Below, in pieces: positions 859 through 61,976 of a stretch of DNA of 64,000 nt (positions are counted from its first letter, which is position 1; each line of letters begins with the position of its first letter). The DNA is from Brevinematales bacterium (GTDB taxonomy: Bacteria > Spirochaetota > Brevinematia > Brevinematales > GWF1-51-8). Location: positions 34,788-98,787 of the forward strand of contig JAGVBZ010000021.1 in NCBI GenBank assembly GCA_020059465.1, given 5' to 3'. Position numbers and translations under genes: made by a program. A model generated the notes under the pieces. It did not search any database. It saw nothing but the letters and a program-made list of their open reading frames with translations, and was not told the origin of the DNA.

Positions 859-1917
859 ATGTCGCGAGTCTACTTAGGGGTAAAAATCATTCTATTCGTG
901 CTATTGGTCGTGTTCCTTGTCAATATAGTCGTCTTTGAATCGCTGCATAAGGGCAAATCGATCGCGGACAGCAACCCGGTATCCGGCGCGGTGATTTCCG
1001 TTTATCTCGGTATCAAGGGGTTTTTCCTAAACGACCCTTATTTTAACGAAACTCTCTCGCAGGTCACGGAATTCGAGAAAGGCCTGAATAATCTTCTGAA
1101 GGAGCGCACATACTCGCTGGAAAAGTATGCCTCCGATCAGCGCTTCTACGACCAGATATTTTACTACTGCGTGTCGCGCGAGTTGACAGAAATAAGCGAT
1201 ATCACCCATGAATATTTCGCACGGTATCCCGATTTCAAGGATCTGATAATAATCGATAAAAAGCTAAACGTTGTCTATAAATCGGGTTCGGAGAGCTTTC
1301 AAATCGAGTTTTATGCGTATACGAACCAGATCATCGCGATGAATTATAAGAACCTGTTCGGTATTATCAAAAAGGGCGAAGACCAGTTCCTCGATTTCGA
1401 GTTCGAAGTTATCGCCCTGTTCGATTTCAGCGTGCTGACCGAGGAGATTAAAAAAAATACTATGCCGGCGTTTGTCTATATCGGCGATACCCTGATCCGG
1501 AACGACCGTTTCTCGATCGAAGAATTCCGTCAGTACAAAGAAATGCTGAAAAAAGAGGACGATATCTACATCGGGTTTAATATCCTGAAAAAGATACCGG
1601 TGAGGATCGGCGAATTCACTATCGGGTATGCCGGCGTGATCTACCCGTCGCGGAGCTTCGTCAGCTATCTTCTCCTTTTTCTGAAACTGGCGTTATTCTG
1701 CGCGCTGGGCGTTTTTATCTTTTTCATCGACCGCCGGGTCGCCGCCTATCTGAAATCGGAAACAGGACAATTAAAAAGAGAAAATAAAAAAATCACCGTA
1801 GATTTACCGGATTTCCCGAAGCCCGAAGATGAGGAAGGGATTGCGGAGGATGAAAAAACCGATAGAAATCTCGAATGGATCGAGCATTACATCGGGCATT
1901 CGGAGCATGAAAAATGA
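859..1917 (+). CDS. Hypothetical membrane protein, two TM helices flanking an extracytoplasmic (Cache-like?) domain
   Basis: 352-aa ORF, N-terminal and near-C-terminal hydrophobic segments, GGGGG RBS-like element, operonic spacing. Confidence 0.7.
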   Translation: MSRVYLGVKIILFVLLVVFLVNIVVFESLHKGKSIADSNPVSGAVISVYLGIKGFFLNDPYFNETLSQVTEFEKGLNNLLKERTYSLEKYASDQRFYDQIFYYCVSRELTEISDITHEYFARYPDFKDLIIIDKKLNVVYKSGSESFQIEFYAYTNQIIAMNYKNLFGIIKKGEDQFLDFEFEVIALFDFSVLTEEIKKNTMPAFVYIGDTLIRNDRFSIEEFRQYKEMLKKEDDIYIGFNILKKIPVRIGEFTIGYAGVIYPSRSFVSYLLLFLKLALFCALGVFIFFIDRRVAAYLKSETGQLKRENKKITVDLPDFPKPEDEEGIAEDEKTDRNLEWIEHYIGHSEHEK

Positions 1918-2690
1918 CAGCGATACGGTCCATCATATCAGGATTGTTGATATCGGTCTTTTCCATCACGCTGGCTGCGCTGGAGTGGGGCGAGAATAAT
2001 ATTATCAAATTCAAGCCGGAGACGGATTCGCCTTATGCCCTTTTTCTCGATTATGAAAACATCGACGCGGGCGGCGGATGCATTAAAGCCGCCGACCCTG
2101 CCAATTCGTGGGTCAGGACGTACGACCTCTTCACCGGGACAGATTTCCTGCCCCATAGCGCGTTCCTGAATATCGTAAACTCTTCCACCGATTCATATAT
2201 CACACTGCTGGTACGGGATTCCATAAACGACGAGATACTCGCAAAACAGAACTTCTCGCAAACCGGATTCCTCAGCTTGACTAATATTTTTAAGAAAGAA
2301 GTATATCTGATGGTCGAGTTCCACGGGACTAATCTTCAGCTTTTTTCGTTCGGGCTGAAACGTATTCCTCGTGAAATCATACGCCCCGCGGAATTCGAGG
2401 TCGGCCCATACCTCTGTTTCTACGGCATCACCAACCTGAATATCAATATCAACCTCCGGATACCGTCGTTAATCGATATGATAGTCTACGACGAGTACGG
2501 AACTATCGTACATTATGTGCAGAAACAGAAGTACCTTCCGCAGGGTCAGTACGAGTTTTATTGGAAGCCGGAAGAGCAAAAAAATAAGAACAACCTGAAA
2601 TCGGGGTCATATTTTATCTATATCCGCGCGAAATCCATCGACGGAAAAACCATCGAGTTGTCGAAAAAATTCCTTTTTATTAAGAATTAA
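1914..2690 (+). CDS. Exported protein with C-terminal FlgD-Ig-like domain
   Basis: Signal peptide; C-terminal 'IVYDEYGTIV...GQYEFYW...LKSGSYFIYIRA' matches FlgD_ig-type pattern; overlaps upstream stop. Confidence 0.65.
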   Translation: MTAIRSIISGLLISVFSITLAALEWGENNIIKFKPETDSPYALFLDYENIDAGGGCIKAADPANSWVRTYDLFTGTDFLPHSAFLNIVNSSTDSYITLLVRDSINDEILAKQNFSQTGFLSLTNIFKKEVYLMVEFHGTNLQLFSFGLKRIPREIIRPAEFEVGPYLCFYGITNLNININLRIPSLIDMIVYDEYGTIVHYVQKQKYLPQGQYEFYWKPEEQKNKNNLKSGSYFIYIRAKSIDGKTIELSKKFLFIKN

Positions 2691-31379: not shown

Positions 31380-32120
31380 TCAGGGCAGGTCCGGCAATTC
31401 CGGGTCGAACCCGCCCTTTGCGGCGATATATTTCCTTAACGCTTCATCCTTCGTATAGGTTAACGGCGTTGCTCCGTTTTTATCCGTAGGGTTTATCAAC
31501 GCTCCCTTCTTGAGTAATATTTTCACTATCGCACTGTTGTTGTTACTGCATGCCAGATGCATCGGAGTCAACTGATTCGACGGGTCAGGTATATCGATTC
31601 TCGCGCCGTTATTCACCAGAAAATCGGCGATCGCGGTAAACCCGTTCATCGCCGCAATATGAAGCGGCGCCCACCTCATCCTCCAATCCCCGGTCTCGGG
31701 ATCTATCGGTTCCGTCTTGAATTTCGCAATCGACACCAGGAATTTTACCAGCGCCAGGTTCGTCCGTTCCACCGCGAGCATCAGCAAGTTTTCGGTGGGT
31801 ATCGCCCCCCGGATCATCAGGTTGCTGACCATGACGACGTCCCATTTCATCACCGCCGCTTCGATCGGGGTGACCCTCAGCATGATACTGCTCACTGCCC
31901 CGTTGGTATTGGTGACATAAACCATCCCCACAAACGGCTGGTTCACGTCATACCCCATGATGAATAATTCCGCGACCCGGTTGGTATTCATCGAGTCGAG
32001 CGCCTTATAGAGCGCGAATTCCTCCGGCTGCGCCGCCGCATTAGTGTCATGCCCCTTACCGCCGTCCCCGTTGCATGCCGTTAGAAATATGACAGAAAGT
32101 ACCGTTATTAGTTTTTTCAT
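31380..32120 (-). CDS. Ankyrin-repeat lipoprotein
   Basis: Lipobox FLTAC; APLHIAAMNG, TPMHLAC, GATPL. Confidence 0.88.
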   Translation of the reverse strand: MKKLITVLSVIFLTACNGDGGKGHDTNAAAQPEEFALYKALDSMNTNRVAELFIMGYDVNQPFVGMVYVTNTNGAVSSIMLRVTPIEAAVMKWDVVMVSNLMIRGAIPTENLLMLAVERTNLALVKFLVSIAKFKTEPIDPETGDWRMRWAPLHIAAMNGFTAIADFLVNNGARIDIPDPSNQLTPMHLACSNNNSAIVKILLKKGALINPTDKNGATPLTYTKDEALRKYIAAKGGFDPELPDLP

Positions 32121-41132: not shown

Positions 41133-42002
41133 ATGATCAGAATATCCGCGCTGATAATCGTTCTTTTCCTTTCGGTCTCATGTTCGGGAGAGACGGGAAA
41201 GAGTTCCCCGTTCATCGAAACCCCCGGCACAAACGGTACGATACTCGCGTACGACGGCAATACCCTGCTCATCCGTTATCACGACACCAACTATCTTACA
41301 AACATCGGGCTGAAAGACCCCATGCTCTACTCGAGCAATATTCTCATCGGAGTGTATAACGGAAAGCTGTGGCGAATCGAACTGGCAGTTTCCGGGCCGG
41401 TATGGTCACAGTTCGGCGACGGGACAAGCCTGTTCACGGACTCGGGATTAGTGTACACCATCGACGGTAGCCGGCTGCGGTACTACAAAGGTTTTATCCC
41501 GCAGAACAGCTTCGAGCTGCCCGGCGGATTATCGGATGTCCAAATGTGGGGCGGGAAATTCCTGATCGGGAAGAAGGACGGCAGGCTGACAGTCTTCGAA
41601 TCCGCCGGCGAGACGGGCATGCTTTTCCGGCAGACCGCCGAAATTCCCGAAGCCGTGATGTGGATAGTTCACCCGTCGTCGCCGTATGTATTCTACTCCG
41701 ACCGCAACGACCGCCTGTTTGTATACAACCTTTTCAGCAAAACTTCCGAGTTTATCGACGCCCCGCCGTTCGAGATCACCCGGATGGAGATCCTTCGCGA
41801 CGAGAGCAGTCTCATGGTCTACAGCGCGGGACGTGTTTTTATCTACGCGGAATGCGCCAACCGGAATATCACCGGCCTTTCCATATCGCCGCTCGATATT
41901 TCCGCCGACGGCAGCGGGAAATTCTATTATTTCCTCTATCCGGGAAAAATTGAGATTTGGACGAAAGTGGGCGGGATGAAAGAGGGCGAGATAAAGTTTT
42001 AA
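41133..42002 (+). CDS. Hypothetical lipoprotein (beta-propeller-like)
   Basis: Lipobox LSVSC; beta-rich repeats ending 'DISADGSGKFYY'. Confidence 0.7.
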   Translation: MIRISALIIVLFLSVSCSGETGKSSPFIETPGTNGTILAYDGNTLLIRYHDTNYLTNIGLKDPMLYSSNILIGVYNGKLWRIELAVSGPVWSQFGDGTSLFTDSGLVYTIDGSRLRYYKGFIPQNSFELPGGLSDVQMWGGKFLIGKKDGRLTVFESAGETGMLFRQTAEIPEAVMWIVHPSSPYVFYSDRNDRLFVYNLFSKTSEFIDAPPFEITRMEILRDESSLMVYSAGRVFIYAECANRNITGLSISPLDISADGSGKFYYFLYPGKIEIWTKVGGMKEGEIKF

Positions 42003-45571: not shown

Positions 45572-48500
45572 TCATTTTACCTTGATAACTTCCGACTGGT
45601 CAGCGCCGTACGTCTCCTTGTCCTTCGGGCCGAAGGTTACATAGTACCTGAACGATAACGTCTTGGGATTCCCAATAACCTTCAGCGGAATCGCGAACTC
45701 GACATCCTGTTTGATGTAAATTTGCGCGTCCTTGGTATCGGGGATATCTATCCATTGATCGCCCTTTTTCAATCGCAGGAGTAATACCTGGCTGTAATCG
45801 ATACCGCCTAACGAGTCCCATCCCCCGCCGACCCAGTACTCCTTCCCGCCGTCGGTCGATATCCACAGACAGTGATTCTTGCTGAGATTTCCGAGCGGAT
45901 TGTTGTAGAATTTCACCCCGATATAAAGAGTATCCGCTGTCACCGCCGCGATAACAGTCGAGATATCAAATATATTCTCTGAGGTCACGGGATCGCCCTG
46001 CGGGTCGTCGTATATCACAGCGCCGGGAAGTTTCGCAATATCGCCGGAAAACCCGTCCAGAGCAATCTTTCCCTTCATATCGGGAATTTTCGCGGATAAC
46101 GGGTCTGTGCCGTGCGTCCATTCCCAGAAATCGGAGACCATATCACCGTCCGTATCCCAATTTGCCGGATCGGTGCCAATCGTCTTCTCGAACCCGTCGG
46201 AAAGGTTATCCCCGTCCGCGTCCGGCTCGAGCTGATAAAGTATCCGTTCGGTCGAGTCGGAACCCTGCACCTCTTTTCCCTCGGGGCCGGAGTTAATTAG
46301 GAACTTAATGTCCGCCCATACCGGATTCCCAATATACTTCATCGGCAGGACGGCTTCGAGGGCATTCCCGGTGATAATATAATCGTTGCCGACCGAGCAG
46401 ATCAGGTTCGTCCATTTCCCCGGCGCGCTGTTTACCGAGATCACGGTACGAAGCAGATTATGCGTTCCCCATTCTGTCTTATACCCCCCGCCGTACCAGT
46501 ATATCGAGGGAGTCATACCGGGAATGGTAATCCAGAATTCATAGTTGACCGCTTTATTCCCGTCCGGATTTCCATAAAATCCCGCGCCGAAATAGAGGTT
46601 TTTATGATCGTAAAAAACATTAAAATTTGAAATATCATAAATATTCTGCTTCACAGTCGAATCGGAAGAGGGATCGATCAAGTACATCTTCCCGGGGACA
46701 TTATTCCAATCCGCGAGAAAACCGTCAACAGCGAGAGGCACACCGGGAAGCTCGGAGGGCGGGGTCTTCTTGAGCGGGTTGAGCGCGTGAGTGATCTCCC
46801 AGTAATCGGAATAACCGTCGCCGTCGGTATCCCATTTCTTCGGGTCGGTGCCGTAATCCTTTTCCAACGAATCGGGGATGCCGTCCTTATCCGAGTCGGT
46901 TATTTTCGCCGGGGCGGTCGCGCTATTAAAAATAAATCCCTTCACTAAGGAAAGGTTCGTAAAAAATATTCTTTCCATGAGTGTTTCCGGCATCCCTATG
47001 GTCATAAAATTTGCATATGGGTAGGAATTCACCGGCTCGCCGGGGTAGAAATAGGAATGATAATAATTCCCCGACCCTATCGGTACCTGTTTCGTCTTAT
47101 CCGCGCTCTTCCACGGATGCCAGTAAGGCTTATTGAAATAAAACACCATCGGTGTATCGGGTTTTTCCTTTCCCCCGGAGTAGAAACGCGGGATTTGATA
47201 AACATACCAACGCTTGAGATTGGGGTCGTAATGGGCGGGATAATTATGAGACAATAACGCCGTACCGTACGGATCGGTGTGCTGGAACGATGCCGGAGCT
47301 ATCCCCGCCGCGCGGTAAAATGCCATCTGCGCGACAGTCGTATCCCCGCAGTCCCCGATAAAGCATCCTTCCTTGATCAGGTGGTTGTATTGATAATTGA
47401 TCCAACGAAAATCGTCCCATCGGTACTTATTACCGAAGTACTCCACGTAATACTTTCCTTCCTTATATAACTTATGGGCGTTCTCCCATAACTCTTTCCA
47501 TGCCGAATTATCTGCGTTAAAAGCATCCATGTTTTCTATACTGCTGAGGTACATCCGGTGGGCGTGCACCCAGTCCTCCAAGTTCCTCGCGGTCACTTCC
47601 AAATCGAATAACGCGAGGCCCTTATCGACAACAATCGAATGTATCTTCTCGAGTATATCGATACGGTCGACAAATTCCCGGTAAACTTCAAGATTCATTT
47701 TATCTAACTTCATCCGGTACATCGCGTCGAGAATATATGCGTGAGAATAACGCGCGCGGTCGGCCCAGAATATCTTCGGAATAAGGGCGGCTTTTTCAAG
47801 CGCGTACGGACATTTCCAGCTATTCTGCCAATCGACGATTTTCCGGTAGAATTGGTACTGTTTGACAGCATCCTCCGCGATCGCCTTTTTTACTTCGTTA
47901 TCCGCCATGGAGTAGATCATACTGTTCGCGAGCGCTATAGCCGCAGTGATACTATCCCCCGCTCTGTAACAATCCATAGAAAGAAGGTGGAGATACAATG
48001 CCAGCGCAGAGTTTTCCATCCGGTACATGACTGATGCGGGTTCGCAGTTTTCGACATTTTTGAACTCGGTATCGGAACTCTGCGCCCATATTAGAATATT
48101 CTGCTTATATTTCGACTCGTCCAATCCGAATTGGGATAACGATAGGGAAAACTCGAACACGTCCGCCCCGGCGAACTCAGCCTTTACCGGAAGGGAATTC
48201 TCCTTAGTGATTAAATTATTCAGCCACATCCATGGAGTGCCCTGCTTATTCCATCCCATCCCTACCTGAAAGTCGCAGTACCCGTCGCCGGTACAGTCGA
48301 TCAGCACAAAAAACCATCCCGGATTGGCGGGTTTCTTCGCGGTACGGATAATCCCGTAGAGCATATCCCCATCTACAGCGAAACTCGCGCCGATAATATT
48401 TAGCGCGGGATTTTTCGACGGATTATTCGCGGGGTTATCGATCACCGAAAATCCGCCGCCGCCCCATTCCGTATCCTTCCCGTCGATCTTTATCCCGTTA

Positions 48501-48787
48501 ATCACAGGCGCGGCGCATTTTCGGAAGTATTCATCCTGTAGTACAAGTTCCCATCCGAGGAGTACGTCGGGATTTTTATCGCCGGTATATTTTTTCATGT
48601 TGATAAACGCCTTCTGGAAATCCGTACCTGTTACATTATCAGCCGAAAGGATTTCAGACTGTGCGGCTATCGATGGATATGCAGTCTCAAGCCCCTTCAT
48701 CGCCGGGAAATCAGCCCCCTGAACAATCGATAAACCTCCGTTCGATACGATGAAAAGTAAAGATAGAAATAGTCTCGTGTGTTTCAT
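45572..48787 (-). CDS. Large exported multidomain protein: DOMON/CBM9-like repeats, transglutaminase-like core, bacterial TSP3 Ca-binding repeats
   Basis: Signal-like N-terminus (start 48787, GGAGG); three 'DG..D/EW..D...DI/NI' units; GDCGD...AAGI...HNY; DSDKDG/DTDGDG repeats. Confidence 0.7.
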   Translation of the reverse strand: MKHTRLFLSLLFIVSNGGLSIVQGADFPAMKGLETAYPSIAAQSEILSADNVTGTDFQKAFINMKKYTGDKNPDVLLGWELVLQDEYFRKCAAPVINGIKIDGKDTEWGGGGFSVIDNPANNPSKNPALNIIGASFAVDGDMLYGIIRTAKKPANPGWFFVLIDCTGDGYCDFQVGMGWNKQGTPWMWLNNLITKENSLPVKAEFAGADVFEFSLSLSQFGLDESKYKQNILIWAQSSDTEFKNVENCEPASVMYRMENSALALYLHLLSMDCYRAGDSITAAIALANSMIYSMADNEVKKAIAEDAVKQYQFYRKIVDWQNSWKCPYALEKAALIPKIFWADRARYSHAYILDAMYRMKLDKMNLEVYREFVDRIDILEKIHSIVVDKGLALFDLEVTARNLEDWVHAHRMYLSSIENMDAFNADNSAWKELWENAHKLYKEGKYYVEYFGNKYRWDDFRWINYQYNHLIKEGCFIGDCGDTTVAQMAFYRAAGIAPASFQHTDPYGTALLSHNYPAHYDPNLKRWYVYQIPRFYSGGKEKPDTPMVFYFNKPYWHPWKSADKTKQVPIGSGNYYHSYFYPGEPVNSYPYANFMTIGMPETLMERIFFTNLSLVKGFIFNSATAPAKITDSDKDGIPDSLEKDYGTDPKKWDTDGDGYSDYWEITHALNPLKKTPPSELPGVPLAVDGFLADWNNVPGKMYLIDPSSDSTVKQNIYDISNFNVFYDHKNLYFGAGFYGNPDGNKAVNYEFWITIPGMTPSIYWYGGGYKTEWGTHNLLRTVISVNSAPGKWTNLICSVGNDYIITGNALEAVLPMKYIGNPVWADIKFLINSGPEGKEVQGSDSTERILYQLEPDADGDNLSDGFEKTIGTDPANWDTDGDMVSDFWEWTHGTDPLSAKIPDMKGKIALDGFSGDIAKLPGAVIYDDPQGDPVTSENIFDISTVIAAVTADTLYIGVKFYNNPLGNLSKNHCLWISTDGGKEYWVGGGWDSLGGIDYSQVLLLRLKKGDQWIDIPDTKDAQIYIKQDVEFAIPLKVIGNPKTLSFRYYVTFGPKDKETYGADQSEVIKVK

Positions 48788-48845
48788 ACCGCGCCTCCCG
48801 ATTGAATATAATATGCACCAGAATACACTATTTCTCAAGAATTGT

Positions 48846-56992: not shown

Positions 56993-58882
56993 TTGAAATT
57001 CCGACTATTTATACTATTGATATTTTCCGTCCTTTTTATTTCTTGCGGCCCGTCGCTGATCAAGCAGACAGAAGACGCAAAAAAAGCGGTACAGGACGGG
57101 CTGGTAAAATCCTACACCCGGGACCTTAAGGTCGAACTACATTTTTTTACCAACCTTTCCGGCCAAAAGGATATCAATTATCTTTCCAAAGCGCTTCCCG
57201 AAATGCTGTATGCATACCTCAAACCCGTCGAAGCCGAACAGGCATATGTGGATTTTTTACCCGCCGGACTGACAGTTTCCCCGGAATTGGAAAAGACTAT
57301 TCTGGATAATATCATGTTTTTTTCCAATTATATCACCAATGTCGCGTCCGTACTGACCCAGAGAGCGTTCCAACTCCTTACCAATACTAATTTTTTCGCT
57401 CATGCCTCGAATTACACTAAATATCTCTCCGTGTCCAATACCTATATGAACATCATTCTGACAAACTACAGTATGAAAATCCAGTGGAAAAACACGAATA
57501 CCATCACCAATATGATCGTAAATATTTTTACCAATTTCACAGGTACGAATGTTACAAAAACCAATCTGAACCGCATATTCGGCCCTCAGCTTTACACCCT
57601 GATAACAAACGAGTTTCCCAATTTGAAAACGAGTTTCTCGCATATCCCCGTGTCGCTTGTTAAAAAATTCACCCTGACGGCTACAAATCTTCCCGCAGCC
57701 GGGAAAACACCCGATGTTCCCAAACCGGTCACTGCCGATGCAGTCCAGCCGTCCAAAGAAGCGCCCCCGAAAAATACAAAGGATGCCAAAGCGCCTCCGA
57801 AGGCCGATCCGAAAAAGGATGTGAAAACACCTCCGGCGAAGGATAAGACTCCCGAAGCGCCTGTCAAGCAAACCAATATTCTTAAACCCGCCGAGGAGTT
57901 GAAACCGTTTACGTTATATATCAAGGGGGCGTATAAAATCAAGTCGCAGGGGAAAGGCCCGACGATAATCGAGATAACGCTTAAACTGACCAAAGTTGCG
58001 GGCAAAACGAATACAAACACCTATACGCTTGTCTGCCGCGAAGACCAAGTATCGGATAAGATAATCGAGTTTCTGAAGCCGATCCGCCAGTTGATAATCA
58101 ACCGGTCGGCGGGAGATATAATTATTGTGACTGAGCCTGCGGCCGCGAACGTTTATCTCGACGGATCCTACGTCGGCAAATCTCCGTTATACTACCCCGC
58201 TGTCATCGGAGGTAAACATCAGATCGCATTCATTAAGGACGGGTACAACCTGAAGAATATCGCTGTCAATGTAATAACTAATATGACGAATATTGTCACA
58301 ACCCATATCAGTAAGCTGGACGAGGGCGGGATTGTGTTCATCGGTTCGTCTCCCACCAACTGTCTGGTGTTCATCGATTCGCTCTATGTGGGAAATACGC
58401 CCGTGCAGGTATCAAACCTGACAATCGGGGTCGAGCACAGGGTCAAGATTATTACCGGCGATACTAATCAGTTTAAACCGTATTATACTGTGTTCAAGCT
58501 GAATCACCCGGGGCAGGAAATCACGATCAATGCATGGCTGAAGGATTATCAGGAAGTATCGCCTAAAGACACACAAAAAGCCGCTTGGATTGCCGCGTAT
58601 GCAGGATGGGGATTAACGCTTGCGGCGTTCGGAGTGGGAATCTATACCCATTATCAGTCTGAGTTTAATTACGACCTTTATTACGCGAATCACTTATCAT
58701 ATTATAAAGTCAAGGGCGACGATTTCCAGAGTATCACAAAAACCAGTTATACGATCAGTATAATCGCCGCGCTGGCCGCCGCAGGGCTGACCCAAAACGC
58801 CCTCTATCAGGAAAGGGTCTACCTCGGTCTGGAAAAACTATCCTCCGATGAAGTAAACGCGACCATCTCTATACAATACTGA
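56993..58882 (+). CDS. PEGA-domain lipoprotein with TN-rich region and P/K/A-rich linker
   Basis: Lipobox FISC (TTG start); two PEGA units (EPAAANVYLDGSYVGKSP; SSPTNCLVFIDSLYVGNTP); C-terminal TMs. Confidence 0.8.
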   Translation: MKFRLFILLIFSVLFISCGPSLIKQTEDAKKAVQDGLVKSYTRDLKVELHFFTNLSGQKDINYLSKALPEMLYAYLKPVEAEQAYVDFLPAGLTVSPELEKTILDNIMFFSNYITNVASVLTQRAFQLLTNTNFFAHASNYTKYLSVSNTYMNIILTNYSMKIQWKNTNTITNMIVNIFTNFTGTNVTKTNLNRIFGPQLYTLITNEFPNLKTSFSHIPVSLVKKFTLTATNLPAAGKTPDVPKPVTADAVQPSKEAPPKNTKDAKAPPKADPKKDVKTPPAKDKTPEAPVKQTNILKPAEELKPFTLYIKGAYKIKSQGKGPTIIEITLKLTKVAGKTNTNTYTLVCREDQVSDKIIEFLKPIRQLIINRSAGDIIIVTEPAAANVYLDGSYVGKSPLYYPAVIGGKHQIAFIKDGYNLKNIAVNVITNMTNIVTTHISKLDEGGIVFIGSSPTNCLVFIDSLYVGNTPVQVSNLTIGVEHRVKIITGDTNQFKPYYTVFKLNHPGQEITINAWLKDYQEVSPKDTQKAAWIAAYAGWGLTLAAFGVGIYTHYQSEFNYDLYYANHLSYYKVKGDDFQSITKTSYTISIIAALAAAGLTQNALYQERVYLGLEKLSSDEVNATISIQY

Positions 58883-59624: not shown

Positions 59625-61976
59625 ATGAAAAAGAATACCTTTAAGAAAATCATTTTCACTTGCCTTGTCCTATTATCTTTACCTTTTATCTTTTCCTGCG
59701 CCCCAAGTACAGAAAATCCCTCACCGGGAAATACTACCCCTTCGATGGTCAATTCCGTCGGGTATGAGATCTATGTCAGAAGTTTCTGCGATTCCGACGG
59801 TGACGGTATCGGCGATTTAAAAGGACTGATATCGAAGCTCGACTATCTCAATGACGGAAACCCGGATACCTACAGCGATTTGGGGGTAAATGTCATCTGG
59901 CTGATGCCGATTTTTAAATCACCTTCCATTCACGGGTACGATCAGACCGATTACTATGATATCAATCCTTCCTATGGTACAATGGCGGATTTTCAGGAAT
60001 TTCTGGATAAAGCGCATGCCCGAGGGATAAAGGTTATTGTCGATCTCGTGATAAATCATTGTTCCGATCAGAGTACGTGGTTCACCCAGTCTGTTGCTAA
60101 AAATGCCGCATATAAAGACTGGTTCGTGTGGACGAACGAAACTCTGGGGAATCTGGCGGGATGGCAAAAACCTTGGGGCGGTGAAACGGCTACAAATGTT
60201 TGGTTATCTGCTCCGGGGAGGCCCGGTGAGTATTTCTATGCGGCATTTTCCGGGTCTCAGCCCGATCTGAACCTGAAAAATGCTGCGGTCGCGGCAGAAA
60301 TCGAAAATATCGTTACTTTTTGGCTGAATAAGGGTGTCGACGGTTTCCGTCTCGACGCCATCCGGTACCTGATCGAGACCGGGCCCTATCCTAATCAGGC
60401 CGATACCCCAGAAACTCTTGTCTATCTTCAGAATTTTCAAGCACATATGAAAAGCGTGAAATCCTCCGCATTCACTATCGGAGAGGTATGGTCATCGCTA
60501 TCGGATATTGAAAAATACTACGATAATAATCTGGGTGTCGATATGTGTTTCGATTTTACCTGTGTTAATTCTGTACTTTCAACCGCATTTTTTCAAAACA
60601 ATAGCTATATCGGTACATATTTGACGACTTCGCGAAACGCCCCATGGTCGTTTTTCTCGCCCTTCTTAGCGAACCATGATCAGCAAAGATATCCAGACTC
60701 CATCGGCGGCGATACAAATGTGTCGAAAGTCGCGATGGCGATACTTCTCACACTTCCGGGGATGCCGTTTATCTACTACGGCGAGGAATTCGGGATGATG
60801 AACTCCGGGGCAGGCGGCGATACCGCCTATAGAAGCCCGATGCAGTGGGATAATTCTGCCGGCGCCGGATTTACCGCCGGTTCGCCATGGACACCGATCG
60901 GCGCGAACAGCGATCCCTTCAATGTATCATCTCAAACCGCCAACCCGAATTCACAATTGAATATGGTAAAGAAGATGGTAAATATTCGCACTAAATATTC
61001 CGCTCTCGGTTCTACCAACACCGAGTTGATCGGCACGTCGGTTAATTCAATTGTCAGTTATTTTCGAAAAGGAACGACAGACGGTATAATAGTGATTATC
61101 AACACCTCGGGAACAGTCCAGAATGTGAACCTGAACTTTTACAATACCTGCATTCCACAAATTATTTCCATTCAGAACCTGATGAAAGCCGAATCATTGA
61201 CAGGAATCTCTACGGGAAACTACGGTGTTTATCCGGCAATCCTTCAGCCCTATGAAGTGAAGCTCCTCTATGTCGGAACGGTACTCGATACGCGCACAGT
61301 CGCCCCTCTTCCGCCGCCGACCGTCACTTTATCTCTCGGTAACGGATTTTTATACCGGCCGGATATGAACTATACTACTTGGGTATGTCATAGTAATTCC
61401 AATTTTATCATCACTGCCAACGTACAGTCTAATGGAAATGTGATAAATAGGGTTGAATTCTGGGATTATTATTATAACTTTAAAATGTCTACCGATACTA
61501 CCGCGCCATATGAATTCACTTATAGCAGTTATCCGTATCCTTGGGATTACGGCGATTATAGAGTTTATGCAAAAGTCTTTTACGGCGGTTCGTCGTCAAT
61601 CTCTTCTGTGGGAACCAATCTCTATCGATACTCGCCCTATTATGAAAGCATCATTATAAGTAATGCCTATTATATTTTCCGAATGAAACCCACTGAGATA
61701 TTCTATACCTCAAGGATAAAAACTAACACAATCATCAATGCGATGTATCTTACTGGGGAATTTACTACATGGGTACAAAACAATCCTGCTTATCAAATGA
61801 CTCTAAACGGCCAATTCTATGAAATCACTGTCGCGAGCAATATTTGTAAAGGAAAGATGTATAAATTTACTTTATTTACGAACGGAAATACCAATCTCTC
61901 AAAGGTTATGTGGTTATGGGATTTTGCAAATTACCGTTACAATACAATGGATAATTACAATGCGATAGCGCCTTAG
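59625..61976 (+). CDS. GH13 alpha-amylase family lipoprotein with C-terminal Ig-like/CBM-like domains
   Basis: Lipobox IFSC; YEIYVRSF.DSDGDGIGD, DLVINH, DGFRLDA, GEVW, FLANHDQ, YYGEE; PLPPP linker; 'MYLTGEFTTW' CBM48-like. Confidence 0.92.
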   Translation: MKKNTFKKIIFTCLVLLSLPFIFSCAPSTENPSPGNTTPSMVNSVGYEIYVRSFCDSDGDGIGDLKGLISKLDYLNDGNPDTYSDLGVNVIWLMPIFKSPSIHGYDQTDYYDINPSYGTMADFQEFLDKAHARGIKVIVDLVINHCSDQSTWFTQSVAKNAAYKDWFVWTNETLGNLAGWQKPWGGETATNVWLSAPGRPGEYFYAAFSGSQPDLNLKNAAVAAEIENIVTFWLNKGVDGFRLDAIRYLIETGPYPNQADTPETLVYLQNFQAHMKSVKSSAFTIGEVWSSLSDIEKYYDNNLGVDMCFDFTCVNSVLSTAFFQNNSYIGTYLTTSRNAPWSFFSPFLANHDQQRYPDSIGGDTNVSKVAMAILLTLPGMPFIYYGEEFGMMNSGAGGDTAYRSPMQWDNSAGAGFTAGSPWTPIGANSDPFNVSSQTANPNSQLNMVKKMVNIRTKYSALGSTNTELIGTSVNSIVSYFRKGTTDGIIVIINTSGTVQNVNLNFYNTCIPQIISIQNLMKAESLTGISTGNYGVYPAILQPYEVKLLYVGTVLDTRTVAPLPPPTVTLSLGNGFLYRPDMNYTTWVCHSNSNFIITANVQSNGNVINRVEFWDYYYNFKMSTDTTAPYEFTYSSYPYPWDYGDYRVYAKVFYGGSSSISSVGTNLYRYSPYYESIIISNAYYIFRMKPTEIFYTSRIKTNTIINAMYLTGEFTTWVQNNPAYQMTLNGQFYEITVASNICKGKMYKFTLFTNGNTNLSKVMWLWDFANYRYNTMDNYNAIAP

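Follow-up and report, generated by a model that had tools for sequence, protein, structure and literature searches.

A 64,000-nucleotide stretch of the genome of a Brevinematales bacterium, referred to here as the window, encodes a lipoprotein with PEGA domains at positions 56993-58882, and its sequence raises the question of why the dipeptide Thr-Asn (TN) recurs in it so often and whether an enzyme of the cell envelope could read this pair. In this protein of 629 amino acids, for which the original prediction had estimated about 19 TN by hand, the exact count is 19 against 4.1 expected from its own composition, and in 20,000 shuffles the mean is 4.1 and the maximum 14. The three peptides quoted in that prediction are all present in the sequence, and the pairs NT, SN, and NS occur 8, 4, and 0 times, respectively. 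Over the whole genome, TN is under positive protein-level selection in extracytoplasmic segments, with Ser as a substitute for Thr, and it is probably the sequon of a general periplasmic glycosylation system.

Protein-level selection for Thr-Asn in exported proteins

The source genome (G000; 3.19 Mb, 96.6% complete) contains 2,873 genes called by our own hexamer model. The 2,602 proteins of at least 100 amino acids were put in compartment classes by a signal-peptide/hydrophobicity heuristic instead of SignalP, and the signal peptide was removed before counting. The 666 predicted exported proteins contain 1,477 TN, with an observed/expected ratio (O/E) of 1.65 (z 19.5; bootstrap over proteins 1.53-1.76), and TN ranks first among the 400 dipeptides in this set. 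The ratio is 1.99 in the 202 predicted lipoproteins, whereas the 1,291 cytoplasmic proteins contain 726 TN at an O/E of 0.88 (bootstrap 0.81-0.95), and TN is also first in the exported-versus-cytoplasmic contrast of dipeptides (z 16.9), with the runner-up at z 4.9. The reverse pair NT, named in the original prediction as the comparison to be made once composition is controlled, shows an O/E of 1.09 in exported and 1.11 in cytoplasmic proteins, far from the value of TN. SN shows 0.68 and 0.78, respectively, and the spaced pairs T-x-N, T-x-x-N, and N-x-T show 0.98, 0.99, and 1.09 in exported proteins. Shuffles within stretches of 10, 20, or 40 residues leave TN at 1.51-1.60 (1.51 for 10 residues), and the ratio is 1.66 in the 651 exported proteins without internal repeats and 1.69 when one protein is kept for each of 476 paralogue families. 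At least one TN is present in 64% of the exported proteins.

Since all eight ACN-AAY codon pairs are more enriched in exported than in cytoplasmic genes, six of them above 1.4, selection acts on the protein and not on the DNA. Counts of DNA patterns (ACNAAY-based against AAYACN-based), used as a genome-wide proxy, gave no signal, even in G000. Moreover, the outer loops of 26 membrane proteins with two helices hold 40 TN versus 21.9 expected and their inner tails 18 versus 24.2, and nine flagellar axial proteins, which bypass Sec, hold 10 versus 15 expected (one false match removed). A regular expression for Tat-type signals found no match over G000. Thus, the compartment-specific selection claimed from the window was borne out in the genome at large, together with its codon, topology, and paralogue controls.

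The enriched pair is Thr-Asn alone. Its O/E exceeds 1 after every residue except Arg and is highest after M, L, V, and I (2.1-2.6). Among the residues that follow, I, T, Q, and R are highest (2.1-2.5), with little or no enrichment before P (0.97), H (0.99), E (0.74), and D (1.17), and two positions after Asn, Q, I, and V are favoured above T or S. Although SN is what most often replaces TN in orthologues, it is depleted overall, and the remaining SN sites show the same hydrophobic context as TN. The canonical N-x-S/T is not enriched in exported proteins when S or T does not precede it (N-x-T 1.02, N-x-S 1.08), and the motif D-(S/T)-(A/I/L/M/T/V) occurs in them 699 times versus 678 expected (O/E 1.03; 1.24 in cytoplasmic proteins).

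The lipoprotein was matched in 30 of the 31 genomes of the order sample, and all 26 aligned orthologues are TN-rich, with 7-25 TN each versus 1.2-6.2 expected; a homologue from G070 has 7 versus 2.2. The alignment of the 26 orthologues contains 434 TN over 99 columns, 48 of them singletons and 11 common to at least half of the rows; TN in the orthologues is a combination of a few fixed sites and many that come and go. The residues found at these columns are TN (312), SN (68), other x-N (48), and T-x (16), and TD occurs three times at orthologous TN sites. The first TN of the TNTN at residues 339-342 is retained in 19 of 22 distant orthologues and TN432 in 20. The AlphaFold model of the lipoprotein has a mean predicted local distance difference test (pLDDT) of 76 and a predicted template modelling score (pTM) of 0.49, residues 130-179 form a protruding hairpin region of low confidence, and a fold search with the whole model returned just weak beta-sandwich matches (TMq of at most 0.16). 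Residues 525-629, conserved in the orthologues, comprise two long helices followed by a beta-hairpin with a terminal aromatic residue, a C-terminal part that may be a membrane-inserting or oligomer-forming module.

Two candidate transferases and their distribution

The original prediction suggested that an envelope enzyme recognises TN, with a structural motif as an alternative, and proposed a search for STT3/PglB-like or other glycosyltransferases of the GT-C type. No STT3/PglB match (PF02516) was found in G000, at its given completeness, or in any of five relatives, with positive controls in four archaea, whereas two other GT-C candidates were found, a YfhO-like protein and a TMEM260-like transferase encoded by two genes, which mostly co-occur with the TN excess. 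PMT, PMT_2, and Sulfatase-family (EptA/LtaS-type) proteins gave no match in G000. The Pfam scan covered 26 chosen proteins, about 20 of them from 114 multi-helix proteins, and four candidates were profiled.

The YfhO-like protein (860 residues) is present in all 35 genomes of the order, and its PF09586 match of 28.9 bits (cut-off 28.5) covers the C-terminal 70 residues only. Its model (pLDDT 88.9, pTM 0.90) has a GT-C architecture with a membrane part and a periplasmic domain, and is structurally closest to the arabinosyltransferase AftD (Z 24.2; root-mean-square deviation (rmsd) 6.3; 602 residues aligned). STT3/PglB/AglB structures match with Z 18-22.6, the yeast STT3 8age being aligned over 463 residues (Z 22.6, rmsd 4.8) within model residues 1-692, which include part of the periplasmic domain. 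Pmt2 is aligned over 369 residues (Z 19.2, rmsd 4.8) within residues 1-535 only, that is, the membrane part. WWDxG, the motif of the STT3-type periplasmic domain, is absent from the protein's sequence and from its conserved columns; neither the sequence nor its profile found anything significant among PDB sequences, and a plasmid search gave three weak C-terminal matches. In one relative (G002:C32:16929-19508), the YfhO-like match shows two internal TAA stops though an 860-residue frame is open there, which is probably an alignment-edge or assembly matter.

Relatives of the YfhO-like protein also occur outside the phylum. In clusters that are Atlas look-alikes at 0.99, 21-66% of the members have PF09586, and the two best clusters are commonest in Verrucomicrobiota, which is a lead only. 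When the profile was run over 1.84 billion proteins and the best 150 matches were taken, 118 matches outside the Brevinematales-like set held 258 TN versus 92 expected in the periplasmic domain, over 58 columns, and 72 versus 76 in the membrane halves; in these counts, the rows are homologous and not independent. A 43-member clade with a Verrucomicrobia protein holds 131 TN versus 38 expected (69 without its three commonest columns), and a 19-member clade with a Lentisphaerae-named cluster holds 7 versus 9. Taxon names on four of 30 clusters looked up were Spirochaetes, Verrucomicrobia, Haliangiales, and Lentisphaerae. A YfhO-like subfamily is thus a link between the spirochaetes and Verrucomicrobia.

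The membrane half of the TMEM260-like transferase matches PF11028 with 132.7 bits (cut-off 24.2; E 1.7e-38) and PDB 9rql with E 2.2e-22. The periplasmic half matches the C-terminal part of a fused homologue of 1,245 residues in G172 (E 6e-34) and residues 402-468 of human TMEM260 (E 0.016). The halves lie on different contigs in G000, are adjacent genes in G070, G059, G046, and G037, and form one chain in families f20 and f49; TMEM260-like genes are present in 34 of the 35 genomes of the order. According to passages of a preprint on the human enzyme (bioRxiv 10.64898/2026.03.17.711096), D52, H67, R264, Y267, and D441 are essential and Thr is modified on extended peptides; parts of a second one (bioRxiv 10.64898/2026.09.21.753134) state that Ser is also accepted, and distant bacterial homologues are mentioned in a section of PMC10214176. 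Equivalents of all five residues are present in the pair, and R355 is not kept. The D and H are invariant, and the R and Y at least 90% conserved, in alignment A2, and E-G-G-D-N-Q-V-F, aligned to human 439-441, is found in 94 of 98 periplasmic halves. These halves are themselves TN-poor (101 versus 144 expected in 86 proteins). As to polyprenol-P-Man, the donor from which TMEM260/GT117 transferases pass mannose to protein, a GT2 protein of 238 residues, of the polyprenol-phosphate-sugar synthase type, is encoded 13 kb from the membrane half, with all its NCBIfam matches below cut-off.

Regarding its neighbourhood, the membrane half, which in its own genus bears an N-terminal RDD domain, lies downstream of a long greA and upstream of an FkbM methyltransferase gene. 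L114-L116 and L057 show the same gene order; L067 retains greA and not the FkbM gene.

Among the 251 genomes of the phylum set, the TMEM260-like membrane domain occurs in 91 and the periplasmic half in 77; 80 genomes have the YfhO-like protein, and the families concerned are almost identical. The periplasmic half and the YfhO-like protein gave no match in the 46 genomes of f15, the 11 of f18, or the 29 of f22. TN was counted in samples of 60-340 kb per relative, which left out families f11, f25, f33, and f38 with multi-copy TMEM260. Of ten samples with both enzymes, five show a clear excess, three a weak one, and two none, and no excess is seen in any of four samples without them. The clear cases, with cytoplasmic O/E in brackets, are G000 with 1.65 (0.88), G016 with 2.65 (0.96), G007 with 1.96 (1.00), G097 and G104 together with 1.57 (0.88), and G228 with 2.04 (0.79), where one protein supplies 32 of 52 TN. 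Exported O/E without the enzymes is 0.87 in G049, 0.90 in G062, 0.70 in G145, and 1.02 in G053. Pooled exported TN amount to 345 versus 245 expected in seven both-enzyme samples and 97 versus 108 in the four without, and in an exported-versus-cytoplasmic ranking of about 300 dipeptides TN is among the top five in six of the seven enzyme-bearing samples and at rank 80-127 in the other four. Because the samples are small and the genomes related, this contrast is weak; it supports a link with the enzymes and does not separate one from the other.

Exported proteins of the G228 sample (L308-L310) are enriched in SN to the same degree as in TN (63 versus 31, O/E 2.06), whereas SN is depleted in G000, and acceptor preference may differ by lineage. 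In the G008 sample (L061-L067, L127-L136), Asp-Pro is the top exported-versus-cytoplasmic dipeptide (1.74 versus 0.84, z 5.4; repeats included).

Two further proteins fit less well. A Wzy_C protein at C22 is a weaker candidate: a single protein query matched 23 of 251 genomes and had no match in G008, G172, G070, or family f49, the TN excess being weak in G008 and G172; a second Wzy_C protein of G000 lies at C11:138447. A GT-C-like protein (G000:C25:75464-76975) is confined to its own genus (4 of 35 genomes) and was rejected as the general enzyme. This protein of 503 residues belongs to a cassette at G000:C25:73738-79472 with an epimerase-like gene, a UbiA prenyltransferase, and small membrane proteins, which looks like a lipid-linked pentose donor pathway, all names except UbiA being our own reading. 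In genus g8 of family f3 (G016:C2:1047706-1055367; also G013, G023, G025, and G027), Wzy_C lies no more than a few kb from the TMEM260-like periplasmic half and a membrane half, a possible glycosylation cluster.

Proposed glycosylation and alternative readings of Thr-Asn

Glycosylation seems the likeliest chemistry because the two GT-C transferases are, among the core envelope-modifying genes checked, those that follow the motif. Tentatively, TN can be regarded as a putative attachment signal at which the YfhO-like and/or the TMEM260-like membrane transferase would link a sugar to the Thr hydroxyl, O-linkage being favoured by what is known of TMEM260 chemistry and by the parallel in Bacteroidota, which carry both families and O-glycosylate D-(S/T)-x. 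A lipid-linked sugar would be made in the cytoplasm and then flipped, and TN would be read at the outer side of the inner membrane by an enzyme that meets the chain still extended after Sec export. Asn at +1 would be the recognition residue and Ser a weaker acceptor, and the two enzymes may work sequentially, the first attaching a priming sugar that the second extends. A role of TN as an export signal or as a purely structural feature fits worse. If true, a two-residue sequon on most exported proteins would amount to a new general glycosylation system in a phylum for which no paper on a periplasmic glycoproteome was found. It would allow modified sites to be predicted beforehand (about 600 excess TN in G000), and a second motif on an enzyme pair that is also a candidate in Bacteroidota would make it possible to ask directly which of the two recognises the motif. 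Moreover, the genes are single-copy and the TMEM260-like enzyme is naturally split, so that its recognition half could be studied alone, and a transferase with so short a tag could be of use in glyco-engineering.

Three known systems and human TMEM260 offer points of comparison. The general O-glycosylation of Bacteroidota uses the motif D-(S/T)-(A/I/L/M/T/V...) and a core that likely starts with a hexose, as described in sections of PMC10897501; its transferase has been sought for more than 15 years, and YfhO has been put forward, by prediction alone, as the O-linking enzyme, which is absent from P. gingivalis, according to parts of a preprint (bioRxiv 10.64898/2026.07.27.740950). Both systems place a short motif over many extracytoplasmic proteins, lack STT3, and have YfhO-family and TMEM260-like genes. 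However, TN carries no Asp at -1 and strongly prefers Thr, and D-(S/T)-hydrophobic is not enriched in G000; in Bacteroidota the glycan is O-linked to the Ser/Thr of the motif, whereas a glycan on TN is a prediction. STT3/PglB/AglB share with the YfhO-like model the GT-C architecture of a membrane part plus a periplasmic domain, but PF02516 and WWD are missing and N-x-S/T is not enriched unless T precedes. The O-oligosaccharyltransferases PglL/TfpO also perform general periplasmic O-glycosylation, and the genome holds two Wzy_C proteins. In passages of PMC12645811, PglL is described as having no defined sequon and preferring disordered Ala-rich regions; TN, in contrast, is a defined pair, and with the query used the conserved Wzy_C protein was matched in few genomes of the phylum. 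Human TMEM260 (GT117; PDB 9RQL/9RQM/9RQN), a protein O-mannosyltransferase, has in common PF11028, the five essential residues, and a Rossmann-like domain followed by a helical TPR-like part. It differs in joining its membrane and luminal domains in one chain, split into two genes in G000, and in its sequon, a long IPT-domain signature without TN. The TN pattern works like Bacteroidota general O-glycosylation but fails the test of its motif and also those of canonical N-glycosylation. The literature searched, largely without subscription papers, yielded no report of either a Thr-Asn sequon or a Brevinematales/Brachyspira glycoproteome; PMC11444514 deals with host glycans.

Several observations weigh against O-glycosylation of TN by these enzymes. 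The proposed modification is predicted from statistics and gene content, and the co-occurrence may amount to one or two independent contrasts in few lineages. Among genomes with both enzymes, the excess is weak, with intervals including 1, in G008 (1.34; cytoplasmic 0.91), G172 (1.23; 0.80), and G070 (0.98; 0.51), and it is absent in G046 (0.96; 1.02; 20 proteins) and G037 (0.84; 0.74; nine proteins). Both families are also present in Bacteroides (control rows), where the motif is D-(S/T)-x. The 82 exported neighbours of 79 metagenomic TMEM260-like genes hold 105 TN versus 99.7, no pooled excess at low power, and thus the TMEM260-like family alone does not imply TN; since YfhO-like relatives are TN-rich, the YfhO-like subfamily is favoured as the marker of TN-using organisms. 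B. subtilis YfhO reportedly figures in a paper on lipoteichoic acid glycosylation (PMC5836110), and the acceptor of the YfhO-like enzyme therefore need not be a protein. In the topology test, the signalling subset, a small set of seven proteins, has 5 TN versus 4.7 expected. Moreover, T-N-x-S/T is more enriched than other T-N-x-x (2.19 versus 1.56), orthologous sites keep Asn more often than Thr (x-N 116 versus T-x 16), and more residues of the predicted YfhO-like structure align to N-linking STT3 than to O-linking PMT.

An alternative is the same system with the sugar N-linked to Asn, Thr or Ser at -1 being recognised by a YfhO-like enzyme of STT3-type fold. This reading is doubtful, yet the fold and the conservation of Asn keep it alive: the alignment of the model to STT3 extends into the periplasmic domain, orthologous sites almost always keep Asn, and TNP is not enriched in exported proteins (0.97 versus 1.38 in cytoplasmic ones). 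The preference for Thr over Ser also parallels that of canonical N-glycosylation for N-x-T over N-x-S. Against N-linkage, G000 and five relatives lack PF02516, WWD is not among the conserved columns, the top structural match is AftD and a shared fold shows no function, and the chemistry known or predicted for the two families targets hydroxyl groups. It is likewise unlikely that early-branching spirochaetes and Verrucomicrobia share a new N-glycosylation route, in which a YfhO-subfamily enzyme with an STT3-type fold and no WWD would modify the Asn of Thr-Asn in hundreds of exported proteins, reading the hydroxyl residue before Asn instead of two positions after it.

That another envelope factor reads TN (a non-sugar modification, a chaperone, or a protease rule), with the GT-C enzymes as fellow travellers of an old lineage, appears quite unlikely. 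The co-occurrence is confounded by phylogeny, two both-enzyme samples lack an excess, and only the chosen proteins entered the Pfam scan, but G000 has no Sulfatase-family, PMT, or PMT_2 match, and the YfhO-like relatives outside the spirochaetes are TN-rich on the periplasmic side only. A structural motif favoured in beta-rich exported proteins, such as a strand end, hairpin turn, or Asn ladder, is improbable as well. It would agree with the strand-like context (I/V/L/M at -1; Q/I/V/T two after Asn), with the many sites at strand ends or turns in the model, and with some Asn positions kept whatever residue precedes them. However, the exported O/E of four other spirochaetes is not raised (0.70-1.02), PEGA homologues from genomes without the two enzymes contain 3 (G145), 2 (G053), and 4 (G044) TN versus 1.7-1.9 expected, whereas the 26 orthologues of the order are all rich, and seven of the 19 sites lie in segments with pLDDT below 50, most others being at strand ends or hairpin turns, while half of the TN columns are singletons. 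An artefact of composition, repeats, a DNA motif, or classification is hardly credible. Exported proteins are indeed richer in T and N, the classes are heuristic, and heterogeneity is large, the exported O/E falling to 1.26 after removal of the top 10%. Nevertheless, the signal persists when the expectation is computed protein by protein, when residues are shuffled within windows, when paralogues are collapsed, and in codon-pair tests, and the same removal leaves cytoplasmic proteins at 0.61.

Features of the window and other dipeptide biases

The main features are listed in Table 1. The original prediction held that TN recurs in most other exported proteins of the window, which is true of those at 31380, 41133, and 1914, whereas those at 2687 (2 observed/1.5 expected), 11793 (3/2.2), 62044 (2/1.8), and 59625 are near chance. 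In the last of these, an amylase, NT also occurs eight times, and in PDB 1wza the positions aligned with four TN of its catalytic domain are occupied by other residues or fall in a gap. Four more exported proteins show no excess, namely 39246 (0/2.4), 45572 (2/3.0), 29800 (1/1.7), and 50733 (0/0.5); thus, the window overstates the uniformity of the pattern, and the whole genome was tested for this reason. The cytoplasmic counts given by eye proved accurate, with no TN in TopA, Ppk1, or GlgB (1.3-1.6 expected) and three in the called gene of ClpB (four from the longest start); enolase has three as well, 1.1 being expected in each of the latter two.

Table 1. Coordinates of the lipoprotein, its parts, other exported proteins of the window, and the candidate transferase genes (window positions unless a contig of G000 is given)
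Feature	Coordinates	Strand	Basis
PEGA-domain lipoprotein, 629 aa, 19 TN	56993..58882	+	sequence, shuffles, domain scan
Signal peptide with lipobox; Cys18 kept in all 26 orthologues	56993..57046	+	sequence, alignment
TN-dense N-terminal region, residues 53-232, 12 TN	57149..57688	+	sequence, model
Pro/Lys/Ala-rich linker, residues 227-299, pLDDT<50, TN at 231 and 294	57671..57889	+	model
TNTN at beta-hairpin turn, residues 339-342	58007..58018	+	alignment, model
Two PEGA domains; TN/SN (429, 432, 455, SN474, 491) at turns and strand ends	58112..58480	+	domain scan, alignment, model
Ankyrin-repeat lipoprotein, 5 TN vs 1.3 expected	31380..32120	-	domain scan, count
Predicted lipoprotein, 3 TN vs 0.6 expected	41133..42002	+	count
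Predicted exported protein, 3 TN vs 1.0 expected	1914..2690	+	count
GH13 amylase lipoprotein, 8 TN vs 5.8 expected, not significant alone	59625..61976	+	count
YfhO-like protein, 860 aa	G000:C29:84690-87272		Pfam, model
TMEM260-like membrane half	G000:C11:149039-150982		PF11028, human TMEM260 residues 30-378
TMEM260-like periplasmic half, upstream of ftsW	G000:C29:218919-221195		homology to fused protein

The large exported protein at 45572-48838, on the minus strand, contains bacterial TSP3 repeats and matches the calcium-binding domain PF03495 weakly, with a score below the cut-off. Other dipeptides are also biased in G000. GP (about 0.5) and AT (about 0.65) are depleted in all compartments, which suggests avoidance of restriction sites at the DNA level. 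Dibasic pairs are avoided in exported proteins only, with O/E in exported versus cytoplasmic proteins of 0.39 versus 0.91 for RR, 0.64 versus 0.96 for KR, and 0.82 versus 1.08 for RK, possibly reflecting avoidance of an envelope protease.

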